NCBI GenBank assembly: GCA_027319565.1
Contig: DAHVNA010000029.1
Span: forward strand, 1 to 28,839
DNA from: Elusimicrobiota bacterium
GTDB lineage: Bacteria; Elusimicrobiota; Elusimicrobia; UBA1565; UBA9628
Direction of reading: 5' to 3'
Length of the DNA: 28,839 bases
Position numbers: made by a program. Positions within the stretch are counted from its first letter, which is position 1, and every line of letters starts with the position of its first letter. This document shows, piece by piece, positions 12,001 to 28,839 of the stretch.

Positions 12001-15000
12001 TCCCGAATGAGTTTAAGGCTTAACGCGTCCGGCAATAAAGACTCGGCGATCAAGACCGCGCCCGGAGGGATGGGCAAAAGGGCTAGGACGCTTTTAAAAT
12101 CCGCGCTTCTTGAAATTTTCCAGCCCCTGAGAGAAAACGCCTCTTCCCAAATTTTTCCCAAAGGCTCTGCTCCCGCGATCAAAACTTCCATTATTAAAAT
12201 TAATCTAGCAAATATCAATTAAAAAAAGCGACGTGACCGGAAAGTCACGGACGCAACGGAGGTAACGGCAAGATACAGAAAGGAACAGAAAGAAACGGAT
12301 GCAACGGAAAGACACGGAAAGCAAAAGAAATCAACAGAGAGCAACAGAAAGAAACGGAGGTAACGGAAAGTAAAAGAAAGAAGGGGACTGGATTCCGGCT
12401 TACGGCCGCTCTCTAACAGACTTGGAAGCGGGTCGCTCTTTAACGAATGCGGAAGCGACACTTCTTCGCCTATGCTCAGTCGCACTTCCTCGCCAATGCT
12501 CGGTTGCCGGAATGACGAAGCCCCCTCGTTGCCTTCCGCCACTTTCCGTTGCATTCCGTTACATCCGTGTCTTTCCGTTACTTTCTGTTGCATTCCGTTA
12601 CTTTCTTTTACTTGCCGTTACGTCCGTTGCTTTCCGTGTCTTTCCGTTTCTTTCTTTATACTTTCCGTTCCCTTCCTTCGCCATTTCTTCGTGATTGCCG
12701 CGGAATTTTCATATACAATTTCAATTAATGGGAAATAAAAAAATTCCGTTTCTCTCCCTTCTTCTGATTTTGGCGGCTCTCGCGCCCTCAGCTCAGGCGC
12801 AGGTGCAATTGGCGATAGCGACGCCGACTTATCCCGCAAACGGATCCTATTTTAGCCTTCAAAATAACGTCCCTAATTTCAATTGGATGGGGCCCAGCAC
12901 GACGACCATCGCTCTTTCCACTTCGCCCGTTTGGAATCTCGACGTCAACACCGACCCCACATTTGTCTCGGGAGCCGTGATCAGCATTTCCACGCCAGCC
13001 GTTATTCTCAGCACAAATCTCGCGGGAACTCGCGGAACTTATATTTCAGGGACTCCGCTTTCCAACAACACGACTTATTATTGGCGCGTTTACGCGACAG
13101 ACGGATCGGGCGGCATGAGTCAGTCTTGGAGCACGTTTAGTTTCGTCACTAATTTCGCCAATTCTCCCAATCTCTCGGCCTCAAACTTTGGGAGCCTCAA
13201 TTCTTCAAATCAATTCACCCCAGAAAACACTTTTATTACTCTCGCCTCGGGTGTCACGTCCCAGATTTCCGTCGCGGATTCCATTAGCGGACTTGCTATT
13301 TCAACGTCCGCCCTTCCATTTTCCGGAGACGGCAATGACGCCGCGACGGGAACCAGCGGATATGGCGTTCTCTATTCTACAGACGCCGGATCAAGCTGGG
13401 AAGATTATTCCGCGCTCAACATCAGCGTCCCTTATGCTGGAGCCAATATTAACGTCCTAGCCGTATTCAATGGATTTCTCTATGCTGGCCTTAGCAATGG
13501 AACTATCCTCTATACTTCTAACGGAACGCTCTGGAATACGGTCTATTCCGGATCTGGAGGCGTGAGTCATTTTGTCGTTTTTAATAATCATCTTTTTGCG
13601 ACAACCAATGCTATCGTTTCCATTAATACCAGCAACGGGGTCAGCGTTGTTTTTAACGCTGGAGCCACGGGTCTCGGCGTCCTTAACGGAACGCTCTTTG
13701 CTGGGTTTTATCCTGGCAGCGCTATTTATGCCACGCAAGATGGAGTTAACTGGGTCTATACGGCAAACCTTGCAGTATGCTCGGACAACTCCGCAAGATT
13801 TTTTACATTCAACGGTGAAATTTACGCCAATATTACCGAGGGCCCAGGCATAAGTTGTAGCGGACTATTTAGAAGCCCAGATGGATTTAACTGGACAAAC
13901 GTTGAATATCAATCCACACCGGGATCTCTCAGCGGCGCAACAGTTTTTAATGGCGAGCTCTATGCGACAACGTATAATCCAGGAGCGCCTCTCCTTTATT
14001 CCAGTCAAGATGGTCTCAGTTGGACTGCGGACAATGGCTCTCTCTCAAATCCTTCCCTAGGCGGCACAGCTAACACTATCGGCGTGGCCAACGGAAAACT
14101 TTATGTGGGAATCAGCACGAATACCGCGAAAATTTATGAGACACCGGATGGAAATAATTGGTTTCCAACAATTGCAGGCGGCACCGGGCAAGGAGGGGCT
14201 GGGGCGCCGGTTAATTTCAACGGTACGCTTTATGCCGCCGCTGGACCAGATCTCATCCGCCTGACACCGGTCTCAACCACTCTACCTGGTGGAAACGGAA
14301 CGCCTTCGGGAACGCTCTCCGCCACAAATTTAAATCTTGTCACATCGACAAGCGCGACGACTTGCGGCGGAACTTATCCTTGCACGGCCACAAACCAGGT
14401 GATGTTTACGGCGTCTGACATGGCGGGGAATACCCTGCGCGCGGGACCCTATGCGGTTTTGGTCGACACGACGGTCGGACCCGCGATTTCGACCCAAACA
14501 TATCCCGCGAACGGGCAATATATCAACGTCAATCCCAATTTCGACTGGCAAGGGCCGAGCGTTGGGCTTATCTCATCTCTGCAGCAGCCCGTTCACTATA
14601 ATATGGAAGTTTCAAATTCTTCAAATTTTTCGAGCCTCCTTATTTCGATTAGCACACCGGCGATTATCGTCAGCACGGCAATCCCCACGGTCAATGGAGC
14701 CTATATCTCGACATACCCCGCCACGACATTCGCGAACAACACCTCTTACTATTGGAGAGTTCAAACCGTAGACGGCTTTGGCGCGGCAAGCGCGTGGTCA
14801 AGCGTCACAAGTTTTGTCACTGATTTTTCGAGCCCCACCGAATCGGGTTTTGAAAGTTTCAATCAACTTGGATCGCCCTTGACCGAAAGTCAGCTCAATA
14901 CACTCGCTTCGGGCGTGACTGCGCAGATTACGGTTCAAGATTCTATTTCGGGTCTCGCCGTTTCAAGCGGAGCCCTGGCTTTTCTAGGAGATGGGCATGA

Positions 15001-27000: not shown

Positions 27001-28839
27001 CAATACGCACGGTTTGAAAGCTGGTTTCGCAATCGTCCTATAGTCGCCGCACAAGCGGATTCTCTTCATCAGACTCTCTCTCATTTTAAAAAAATCAATG
27101 AACAAACCGCTGCGGCTACAAAAGAAGAACTTGATAAAATCAGTTCCGCTCTTAGCCATTTGATCGATCAAGAGAAAATGTTTGAAAGCTGGCTGGACTC
27201 ATCTCCTCTTCCCCAAAAATATTCAAATCCGGCTGTCTCCAACACTCCAGGGAAAAGCGAGGATATCGAAGAACTTGAGGAAGATTTCCAGAAAATATTA
27301 TCCGTCCTTGACTCGGGATTAAACGTCCCGCCCAACAAGTAAAAAATGGGGCCTGTCCCCATTTCATTTGGAATTCGCTTTTCTTTCCTTATATAATAAG
27401 CAACATGGAACTAACATCAATTATCGGTCTCGGAGCAATTCTCATTTTAACCGCGATAGGCCTTGCAACCGGAGGGCTTCCCGCGGTCTTTATCAACTGG
27501 CATGGAATTGGGATTGTCATAGGGGGCACTTTCTGCGCCTTGATGATTAACACCCCGATGGATATTTTGCTTAGAACCGGAGCCTCCTTGACCGATTTAT
27601 TTTCGGCCGATCCCTATATCGATCGCCTAGGAATTATGGACGCCGTCATGTCCTTGGCCCAAGATATTCAATCCCGCGGGATGAGCGCCTTTCAAAACGT
27701 CAACAAAGCGGTCGCTTCCGGTTATTTAGCCTACGCCGCTCAAATTGCCGTTGAATATAATAATCCGGAAATTCTAAGACAGGTTCTGGAAAATGAAATC
27801 ATTCAGAACTCCGATTTGCAAAACGAGGCGGTCAACGTCTTTAGAACTGCCGGCATTTTAGCGCCCATGTTCGGCCTTTTGGGAACCTTGATTGGAATTG
27901 TCGAGGTCCTGCGCCAAATTGCCAACCCCGCTCAGGTGGGATCCGCCATGGCGGTAGCCATCACGACCGCTTTTTACGGTATCGCGATGGCCAACGTCTT
28001 TTGCGTTCCCATCGCCGGGAAACTGCGCATCAGGTATTGGAGGGAAACACAGGCCAAATCCATGATTCTCGAAGGAGTTTATGAAATTCTCCAGCGAACG
28101 CCCGCAGTCATTATTTCGCGAAAACTAAAATCCTATCTATAAAACATGAGACGCTCGCGCCACGAGGAACTGGAAAACCAGCTCTCAAAATCCGCCCAGT
28201 GGGCCATCACCTACGGCGATTTTATGAGCTATCTCATGATTTTCTTTTTGATCATGTTCTCTTTTACCCTATCTAAATCCGGGGGGAAAACGACCGAAAA
28301 TATCAAATACCAACAATCCCTGATCAAAATTCAAAAAGTCTTCGGCGGCAAGGGCTCTTCTCTGGATTATGATCGGCTCATCAAAAGAGAAAAAGAAGAG
28401 TCCATGGTGACCCAGCTTAAACAAGCCCTCGACAAAAAGGATTTATCCAAGTACGCGAAAATAGAAACCTGGGATAAAAAAATTCGCCTTATTTTGGCCA
28501 GTGCCGTTCTCTTTGATTCCGGAAGAGCTACGCTGGCGCCGCGTTCTGAAAAGATATTGGCGGCGGTCGCCCAACAACTCAAAACCCTGGACAATCCCAT
28601 CCAAATCGAGGGCCACACCGACAACGTGCCGGTTCGCGGCGGAAAATACAAATCAAACTGGGAACTCTCTATGGCCCGCGCTTATTCCGTTTTAGTTTTC
28701 TTTCAAAAGCAGGGAATCAACCCGCAAAGATTATCCGCCATCGGCTACGGAAAATATCACCCCATCGCGGACAATAGCACTCCCGCAGGGCGGGCAAAAA
28801 ATCGTAGAATCGAAATAGATTTATTGAGGACTCAATAAA

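Follow-up and report, generated by a model that had tools for sequence, protein, structure and literature searches.

A FliF-FliG rotor and MotAB stator encoded beside a PorV-like carrier and a giant surface protein in Elusimicrobiota: a candidate flagellum-free envelope motor

We describe here six adjoining genes of an Elusimicrobiota bacterium that encode, in order on the forward strand, a giant protein, a PorV-like barrel with a TPR tail, a histidine kinase in frame with a FliF-FliG rotor, a coiled-coil protein, MotA and MotB. The window analysed is the whole of contig DAHVNA010000029.1 (assembly GCA_027319565.1), 28,839 nt in length. We give a probability of about one half to the reading that the cassette specifies an ion-driven envelope motor that operates without a flagellum, acts on a tethered surface protein and has a two-component arm of its own. 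To our knowledge no characterised machine combines a flagellar rotor and stator with type IX cargo and carriers, all of the parts being known individually.

Components of the cassette

The six genes lie where the initial annotation had placed them (Table 1), the barrel and coiled-coil genes having alternative starts at 21154 and 25954, and kinase and rotor sharing the reading frame 23010-25526. MotB had been described as cut by the contig end, but its TAA stop at 28836-28838 falls one base before that end and its OmpA domain is whole. Paralogy with a second cassette (C27) was reproduced for the PorV-like barrel (E 1.6e-31), the FliG part (1.9e-11), MotA (1.2e-30) and MotB (3.6e-29); the coiled-coil proteins of the present cassette (C33) and of C27 do not match one another among the matches listed. 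Rfam gave no matches in the whole window, and the promoter scan (20 against 13.3 expected) and the terminator scan (19 against 24.4) were near chance.

Table 1. Coordinates of the cassette features and of the regulatory genes beside them
Feature	Position	Strand	Basis
CheY-like receiver (10698-11060) and weakly CheC-like gene (10097-10744)	10097..11060	-	domain search
Single-domain response regulator, Asp intact; candidate kinase partner	11120..11497	-	domain search, Asp check
Divergent OmpR-type regulator, receiver without phospho-accepting Asp	11490..12191	-	domain search, Asp check
Giant secreted protein, 2766 aa from ATG	12728..21028	+	gene call, domain search
C-terminal domain, T9SS type A-like, FlgD-Ig-like	20705..21025	+	TIGR04183, PDB profile match
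PorV-like outer-membrane barrel with C-terminal TPR tail	21214..22929	+	profile match, TPR Pfams
Histidine kinase	23010..23942	+	Pfam, helix prediction, box residues
Internal Sec-type signal peptide, residues 312-344, predicted cut after Ala344	23943..24041	+	motif register
FliF-FliG rotor protein	24042..25526	+	profile search, model, Foldseek
Cytoplasmic protein, 456 aa	25972..27342	+	sequence features
MotA, flagellar type	27405..28142	+	PDB MotA/PomA matches, E 2e-27, whole length
MotB, complete: ion-binding Asp25, plug, OmpA-type wall-binding domain	28146..28838	+	Pfam, alignment columns

From its N- to its C-terminus the giant protein consists of a signal peptide, three repeats of about 540 aa, a repeated stalk of about 800 aa, FN3-like domains and the sorting domain. 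Each of the three repeats is a beta-propeller with flanking beta-sandwich parts, a model of the second (pLDDT 85.2) returning only beta-propellers from Foldseek, and the protein is a putative adhesin. The type IX sorting tail assigned to it earlier scores 29.8 against the TIGR04183 cut-off of 23 when scanned alone, but only 20.8 within the whole protein; the tails of 29 of 29 aligned relatives match this family at E<=0.01, and the best PDB match is the PorU tail 6za2 (E 6.5e-5).

The PorV identity proposed for the neighbouring carrier holds as homology (profile match to PorV 6h3i_F, E 7.9e-15), but its NF033709 score of 66 bits lies under the NCBIfam cut-off of 90, and a TPR tail (22264-22926) has been added to the barrel part (21442-22254). 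The leader of this protein is lengthened by a palindromic repeat array. Complex predictions that paired the TPR tail with the rotor's periplasmic ring domain, made with 37-row alignments, scored 0.43, 0.00 and 0.02 and give no answer either way.

The 838-aa kinase-rotor protein carries the Pfam domains reported for it before, namely HisKA (88-153), HATPase_c (200-313), YscJ_FliF_C (25 bits, cut-off 23.8), FliG_M (613-683) and FliG_C (708-811), and its membrane helices at 4-22 and 525-543 are likewise borne out. The rotor portion comprises RBM3 with a beta-collar (345-513), the second of these helices, an acidic linker and the FliG middle and C domains; it is without RBM1, RBM2 and the FliG N domain, and the FliF match covers only residues 241-463 of 6scn. 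Profile searches match FliG 1lkv (E 3e-35) and FliF 6scn (E 1.5e-6), and a model with pLDDT 82.8 matches FliG (3.7e-11) and the FliF ring 7bk0 (2e-5) in Foldseek. The FliM-binding EHPQ motif, found in 21 of 21 flagellar FliG rows, occurs in none of the 69 fused-type rows. FlhA, FliP, FliM/N and the rod families have no matches in this genome (G000, 91.65% complete; controls positive), and we identified no rod, shaft or track gene for carrying torque across the wall.

The 456-aa protein has a short N-terminal amphipathic motif, a proline-rich linker and a coiled coil, and neither Pfam nor Atlas assigns it to a family. Its N-terminal motif was considered as a PopZ, CheZ or FliM docking peptide and rejected, the best PDB match having an E of 0.97.

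Stator, kinase and neighbouring regulators

The ion-binding Asp of MotB is kept in 40 of 40 rows, and the plug and wall anchor are fully kept with it. In MotA, Gln89 and Gln97 replace the Arg and Glu of flagellar stators (Arg90 and Glu98 in the numbering of 10.1101/2021.01.07.425829), and across 19 fused loci Gln or His occupies the Arg position 18 times and Arg the Glu position 13 times, with the FliG Asp289 equivalent lost in all 19. These torque charges are, in the accessible text of that preprint, essential in E. coli and not in Vibrio. At 28 of 42 kinase-linked loci, which are related sequences, the Glu98 position of MotA is basic and is paired with an acidic residue beside the FliG Asp288 position, and this reversal of the flagellar pattern suggests that a contact is retained. 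The stator would exert ion-driven torque on FliG.

The kinase has a single N-terminal membrane helix, a HisKA domain with His97 and an HATPase_c domain, and is without a periplasmic sensor domain. Its H, N, G1 and G2 box residues are invariant in 11 of 11 sequences and kept across 42 aligned rows, and within the helix Pro10, Phe13, Leu16, Met20 and Val23 are invariant in the same proportion (11/11). It accompanies the cassette at 44 of 47 loci, the remaining three being cut. A similar stand-alone kinase is present in 30 of 45 genomes from a family that lacks the rotor, and in the seven such genomes inspected it sits among housekeeping genes. Close relatives of the single-domain regulator (145-157 bits) lie beside two other loci (L049 and L072) and in genomes G001 and G014, and a relative of the OmpR-type regulator adjoins many fused loci; the CheY-like and CheC-like pair is beside the cassette in this genome and G001 only.

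A kinase with no periplasmic sensor, conserved helix residues and constant association with the cassette could also belong to a surface-contact sensor, in which ring and stator form a trans-envelope gauge whose state shifts with load on the giant protein, the helix-anchored kinase reads that state and phosphorylates the receiver protein, and there is little or no net rotation. The degenerate torque charges and the response regulators flanking many loci are consistent with this, as are the up to seven rotor matches per genome, which exceed the needs of one locomotion motor. However, full retention of the MotB Asp, plug and wall anchor and the MotA-FliG charge pairing argue against this, and most other rotor paralogues among the phylum-wide loci have no adjacent kinase, and we regard the sensor as an unlikely reading that nevertheless deserves serious weight.

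The linker between kinase and rotor

The initial annotation described a hydrophobic stretch near residues 335-355 of the 838-aa protein and proposed that signalling passes from the rotor protein itself through a kinase. The stretch is present, but it spans residues 323-344 and is built like a signal peptide that can be cleaved, not like a third helix fixed in the membrane. The linker has the features of a Sec/SPase I signal, with a basic n-region, a short hydrophobic core, a small residue at -3 and Ala at -1 of the predicted cleavage site. The signal-peptidase motif stands at constant register in 66 of 69 fused proteins, against 30.8 +/- 4.0 in shuffled sequences (maximum 44 over 2000 shuffles), and occupies the same place as the leader of stand-alone rotor genes (25/25), and in KD19 hydrophobicity the linker and the free leaders are alike (1.86 and 1.80), below the true helix (2.66).

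The fusion itself runs over its full length in a single open frame in 13 of 31 related genomes, this one included, at 41-95% identity, and the fused protein falls into 70 protein clusters at E<=1e-100, which rules out an assembly error or chance loss of a stop; two same-genus genomes (94% and 97% complete) have no full-length match to the kinase-rotor gene. Because the frame is open in those 13 genomes, which belong to three families, the fusion is old and kept, and this counts for a kinase that remains covalently on the rotor, the linker being an uncleaved helix and each ring bearing about 30 kinases; an out-in-out-in topology would be workable. We nevertheless doubt this arrangement, given the retained signal-peptidase motif and leader-like hydrophobicity. 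Moreover, the kinase is a separate gene at 24 of 47 orthologous loci, in genome G026 the kinase stop codon and the start of a rotor gene bearing an ordinary leader overlap, and two split loci are nested in the fused clade of a quick tree (support 99). Since the linker appears to be the old export signal of the rotor and half of the orthologous loci have a separate kinase gene, the kinase is probably a cleaved partner, cut from the rotor during export, and not a rotor domain, contrary to what had been proposed. Such a precursor, with a kept internal cleavage site, would caution against reading domain fusions as covalent signalling machines.

Internal re-initiation was rejected as a general source of free rotor, as four of 20 fused linkers are without any ATG, GTG or TTG; several others have start codons only inside the hydrophobic core, and in this genome Met323 could serve as a re-initiation start.

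Gene order, type IX parts and known machines

Among 151 genomes of the phylum, a FliF-FliG match is present in 59, FlhA in four and the SprA-like gene in 142; the barrel TPR tail occurs in 53, all of them among the 59 (a hand comparison in which kin are not independent). The PorV-TPR gene lies directly before the kinase-rotor gene at 18 of 20 fused loci, the other two being truncated at contig ends, and at 17 of the 20 it is preceded by a tail-bearing protein. At 22 further loci picked from strong matches across the phylum, PorV-TPR is directly upstream of the rotor, or separated from it by one kinase, in 20, and MotA is within the stretch in 14. No tail-bearing protein was seen in the upstream DNA examined at 19 kinase-MotA-rotor loci with a visible barrel. 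Outside the Elusimicrobiota-type set, 24 of 25 loci have FliF and FliG in separate frames or just one of them, and the remaining one (L093) is a fragment of a kinase-linked copy that carries a different label. Conserved gene order and co-occurrence tie the flagellar-type rotor and stator to the PorV-TPR barrel, and in this lineage gene order ties them likewise to the giant tail-bearing protein, both as first annotated; from this gene order we infer that torque would reach the surface protein.

The SprA-like gene (C20:15445-21201, 1918 aa) scores 55 bits against a TIGR04189 cut-off of 200, through N-terminal parts only, and has no PDB sequence match; its nearest Atlas clusters (0.98) carry SprA_N in 20% and 84% of members. 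The SprA_N Pfam search of this genome was blank, with controls silent too. GldL exceeds its cut-off in none of the 151 genomes and GldM was not found in this one, a weak negative as no control was positive, and the PorU sortase (peptidase C25) was likewise not found, with no control positive.

The rotor had been suggested to act in place of GldLM, and in that reading rotor and stator would supply the energy with which the SprA-like barrel exports its cargo, a task otherwise done by GldLM and the GldKN ring. The failure to find GldL and GldM, the SprA-like gene and the presence of carrier and cargo inside the cassette are compatible with this, and the suggestion is weakly supported. However, because the SprA-like gene is so much more widespread than the rotor, the rotor does not serve as a general substitute for GldLM, and because families f4 and f12 keep that gene (44/45 and 36/44) nearly without the rotor (1/45 and 2/44), it persists without this motor. 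The SprA-like locus has no gene-order link to the cassette, as previously noted, and this genome has several cargo-carrier pairs with plain, TPR-less barrels and no adjoining rotor. Export power thus appears improbable. A role in the inner membrane or cell wall (in ion flux, as a pole scaffold or in support of pili), with surface-protein genes merely co-regulated, is very improbable, for although two of the 22 loci have rotor and stator but no adjoining barrel, some loci are without cargo and the accessible text of a preprint (10.1101/2022.07.08.499144) suggests a twitching link, the barrel-TPR gene adjoins the rotor in most phylum families and all 53 TPR-tail genomes have both.

In the motor that we favour, the 838-aa product would be a precursor that inserts by way of its first helix and whose kinase part folds in the cytoplasm; export of the ring domain would be directed by the internal signal peptide, with signal peptidase I cutting at the site seen in the sequence. 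The products would be a membrane-anchored kinase and a mature FliF-FliG subunit resembling those of stand-alone genes, and the mature subunits, with the fold of the model, may assemble into an S-ring from which the FliG domains hang into the cytoplasm. Wall-anchored MotA5B2, with the stator residues described above, would pass ions and push on FliG. The giant protein would exit through the SprA-like barrel and remain on a PorV-like carrier dedicated to it; the TPR tail of that carrier, in the periplasm, probably connects to the ring, either by itself or by way of an adaptor. The motor would turn, drag or tension the tethered protein for surface attachment or slow surface movement. The kinase may be a dedicated partner that reports on or tunes the machine through the neighbouring response regulators. 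More tentatively, these loci of free-living Elusimicrobiota may represent an undescribed rotary class in which a one-protein FliF-FliG rotor with MotAB drives, in place of rod and filament, PorV-like carriers of giant type-IX-tagged adhesins, several paralogues per cell each having its own adhesin. The present paralogue would then be produced as a self-separating precursor that supplies kinase and rotor 1:1, and its motor could report surface load to gene expression.

If so, the cassette would represent a new way for bacteria to move on surfaces or handle adhesins and a natural minimal rotor of one protein plus MotAB, amenable to direct expression and imaging, and FliG-MotAB torque would work without export gate, switch or rod, which bears on the origin of the flagellum. 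It would also answer a published puzzle of Elusimicrobiota, the free-living members of which have many motAB and fliG homologues and no structural flagellar genes, their role being called unclear or enigmatic (10.1101/2022.07.08.499144); the accessible text of that preprint makes no mention of a FliF part, PorV-TPR barrel, giant protein or kinase. Our literature search, covering mostly papers open without subscription, found none describing the cassette, and motility figure S2 of the preprint may bear on novelty.

Comparison with known systems shows both kinship and departure. The precursor recalls fbcH (cytochrome b-c1) of Bradyrhizobium, where two membrane proteins arise from one frame split at an internal cleavable signal, although in the present case a signalling kinase would come first and a rotor subunit second. 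With the flagellar motor core the cassette shares RBM3 and the beta-collar, the second FliF helix, the FliG middle and C domains, a flagellar-type MotA, and a MotB with Asp, plug and wall anchor. It differs in that FliF and FliG form one natural chain, a predicted cleavable leader replaces the first FliF helix, RBM1/RBM2, the FliG N domain and EHPQ are missing, the torque charges are altered, and no FliM/N, export gate or rod was found in its genome; flagellar RBM2 holds the export gate, as the available part of PMC11481574 describes. According to the accessible portions of PMC11481574 and PMC7355467, FliF-FliG fusions made by engineering or mutation assemble into rings, and Salmonella strains carrying such a fusion can swim. 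A Salmonella deletion fusion (PMC7355467) is similar to the cassette rotor in joining FliF to a FliG that is missing most of its N domain, and this deletion fusion still turns. The Salmonella and Vibrio fusions are nevertheless laboratory forms with a full flagellum and RBM1/RBM2 kept, whereas those of the cassette type are natural, multi-copy and flagellum-free.

With Bacteroidota type IX secretion and gliding this genome shares a SprA-like gene, a PorV-like carrier with a periplasmic C-terminal tail, a type-A-like sorting tail, and a giant repeat protein with its carrier gene alongside. In Flavobacterium the adhesin carrier SprF couples to a moving track through its periplasmic C-tail, as given in the accessible text of PMC12635249. 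The motor here is instead of flagellar type, GldL and GldM not being found (a weak negative), and the carrier and the SprA-like protein score under their family cut-offs. Every type-A-like cargo is paired with a carrier of its own, a habit that in Bacteroidota belongs to type B according to the same available text (PMC12635249).

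The cassette and its surface protein

All six genes of the cassette named in the initial annotation (giant protein, PorV-like barrel with a TPR tail, kinase joined to FliF-FliG, coiled-coil protein, MotA and MotB) were found in a gene and family check of the window, separated in that order by gaps of 185, 80, 445, 62 and 3 bases; the longer gaps contain palindromic arrays built on a 10-base unit. In one such array the second arm encodes the hydrophobic part of the barrel leader. MotB had been described as cut by the contig end, but it is complete, the contig ending one base after its stop codon; in the relative G001 the gene after MotB looks unrelated. 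In several paralogous cassettes (L148, L156, L160, L161 and L165) a single MotA gene is followed by two for MotB.

The giant protein contains three repeats of about 540 residues that are 40–48% identical, followed in the description of its parts by FN3-like domains and a stalk that is itself repeated. One repeat was modelled (pLDDT 85.2) as a beta-propeller plus sandwich parts, which in a structure search resembled propellers generally and no particular enzyme. Its tail, annotated as a type A T9SS sorting domain, reaches the cut-off of the type A model when it is scanned by itself, and is FlgD-like too; the barrel is a PorV homologue as proposed, although its score is under the family cut-off. 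The giant protein of G001 has a different repeat region and 66% identity to that of the window in the C-terminal part, which suggests that the surface part changes fast. In many rotor cassettes a gene of 125–160 codons for a leader and sorting domain only, absent from the window, lies between giant protein and TPR-tailed barrel.

Coordinates of features in the window, in other contigs of the genome under study (C numbers) and in collection loci (L numbers)
Sequence	Positions	Feature
Window	29-8857	Housekeeping: phosphomannomutase, sugar nucleotidyltransferase, metK, fused CoA-transferase A+B, cystathionine lyase/synthase, Mg-transporting P-type ATPase
Window	12219-12593	124-aa frame of palindromic repeats, probably not a gene
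Window	12236-12676	Palindromic array
Window	21034-21450	Palindromic array
Window	22946-22995	Palindromic array
Window	25500-25924	Palindromic array
Window	25566-25940	124-aa frame of palindromic repeats, probably not a gene
Window	28836-28838	MotB stop codon
C80	15-1622	Third TPR-tailed PorV-like gene of the genome, filling a 1.6-kb contig, neighbours unassembled; possible third cassette
C24	1-18282	Protein, 6093 aa or longer, sharing the giant protein's C-terminal domain; cut by contig start
C23	154236-161349	1099-aa protein with OmpA-type domain and partial tail match, beside ExbB/TolQ-like gene
L021 (G001)	1-20000	Gene order of the window, giant protein of 2544 aa
L052	6968-7375	Leader plus sorting domain
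L055	6933-7367	Leader plus sorting domain
L065	468-881	Leader plus sorting domain
L079	7007-7387	Leader plus sorting domain
L149-L153		Leader plus sorting domain

A proposed motor on a tethered protein

We give a probability of roughly one half to a motor that acts on a tethered surface protein. Signal peptidase I would cleave kinase from rotor, mature rotor subunits would form a ring, the stator would exert ion-driven force on it, and the TPR tail would couple the ring to the carrier of the surface protein; the kinase may have a role in the machine. Turning is favoured by a MotA of flagellar type, by the MotB Asp in 40/40 rows, and by laboratory FliF-FliG fusions, which form rings and are motile (PMC11481574, PMC7355467). 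Against it, the positions of stator Arg90 and Glu98, which with the rotor Asp288/289 charges matter in E. coli and less in Vibrio (10.1101/2021.01.07.425829), are both Gln in the genome under study, every one of the 19 fused loci that were scored has altered stator and rotor charges, and no shaft or track was found. Of 42 kinase-linked loci, 28 pair a basic stator residue with an acidic rotor residue, the reverse of flagella. This pairing hints that the contact has been rewired, but the sequences compared are related and the genome under study is not one of the 28. Less probably, the machine is a contact sensor.

It is unlikely that the rotor energises export. The SprA-like gene (1918 aa), the translocon candidate, is on a different contig and, as the annotation stated, no cassette gene adjoins it in this genome. 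Because it persists in most genomes without a rotor (142 of 151 phylum genomes, against 59 for the rotor), the proposal that the rotor stands in for GldLM as a general export motor is not favoured; GldL and GldM gave no match, and none in control genomes either.

The kinase and its linker

The joining of kinase and rotor in one gene is real: one full-length open frame is present in 13 of 31 related genomes, the genome under study included, over three families of the order. In one more genome the match is truncated at the end of a contig, in another (G026) the genes are split, and a full-length match to the 838-aa protein was not found in two of the same genus. When 8000 candidates from the protein database were scored, 70 clusters reached E<=1e-100; the kinase motifs are invariant. 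Among 47 subfamily loci of the genome collection, which partly overlap those of the 31 genomes so that the counts are not additive, 20 are fused. In 21 the kinase is a gene by itself and the arrangement is barrel, kinase, MotA, rotor, coiled coil, MotB; three have separate neighbouring kinase and rotor genes, and three are cut too short to tell. The kinase of this subfamily has thus remained part of the cassette in two different gene arrangements.

Each of the 25 stand-alone rotor genes opens with an ordinary leader, which stops immediately ahead of the conserved mature start. At that position 20/20 fused loci retain Ala together with a basic stretch and a hydrophobic core that is short, the site-picking rule here favouring small residues. 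In a fixed-register test of 69 of the 70 database proteins, 66 have the -3/-1 motif, against 30.8 +/- 4.0 (maximum 44) in 2000 linker shuffles, and in the three misses it lies further upstream by eye. Linker hydrophobicity is that of free leaders and below that of the protein's true membrane helix. The join can be undone, since in G026 the stop of the kinase gene shares bases with the start codon of a rotor gene whose leader is normal, and a fused clade (support 99, quick tree) contains two split loci. Internal-signal cleavage has a precedent in Bradyrhizobium fbcH. Judging from these observations, signal peptidase I very probably parts kinase and rotor; we do not retain the earlier view that the rotor itself signals through a kinase, the linker being in sequence an export signal, and an uncleaved form is improbable.

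The kinase, which has a single helix, lacks a periplasmic sensor. Divergently upstream are an OmpR-type regulator lacking the phospho-Asp, relatives of which flank many fused loci, and an intact single-domain receiver. A similar stand-alone kinase (41–47% identity, and perhaps not an orthologue) occurs in 30/45 genomes of family f4, which almost lacks the rotor, adjoining housekeeping genes in 7/7 inspected; a kinase of this kind can therefore work rotor-free.

Distribution and relation to known systems

FliF-FliG profile matches occur in 59 of 151 sampled phylum genomes, up to seven per genome, and are rare in f4 (1/45) and in a second family, f12 (2/44). The TPR-tail profile (E<=1e-15) matches 53 genomes, all within these 59; the other six comprise two FlhA-positive genomes with a FliG-only match, two weak matches and two more. 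Some TPR-tail matches are stand-alone proteins of about 300 residues. Of 22 wider loci (20 chosen from strong FliF-FliG matches, with L040 and L044 added), 18 have the TPR-tailed barrel directly upstream, two have a kinase in between and two lack the barrel. Plain barrels in the genome under study lie downstream of other tail-bearing proteins with no rotor nearby, and it is therefore the TPR tail, not the barrel as such, that accompanies the rotor. Mere neighbourhood of the genes is very improbable.

FlhA is present in four of the 151 genomes. Two genomes, G092 and G145, match FlhA as well as the FliF-FliG fusion; flagellum and rotor machine can therefore coexist. Searches of the 92%-complete genome under study, with positive controls, found no FlhA, FliP, FliM/N or rod families; it has CheW, a CheA-sized gene and a chemoreceptor. 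The FliM-binding motif EHPQ (PMC7355467) is present in 21/21 flagellar rows versus 0/69 fused-type rows.

Many motAB and fliG homologues have been noted in non-flagellated free-living Elusimicrobiota, their role left open (10.1101/2022.07.08.499144). Term searches did not find FliG, motA, gliding, secretion or porV in a groundwater Elusimicrobia preprint (10.1101/765248), nor the phylum name in PMC12505986 and PMC13277936; the accessible part of PMC12204202 mentions it for Tol-Pal only. No description of the cassette was found in the literature searched. On the tests made here the system is not a member of the Bacteroidota T9SS, nor is it a flagellum; it would work like the core of a flagellar motor joined to type IX cargo.
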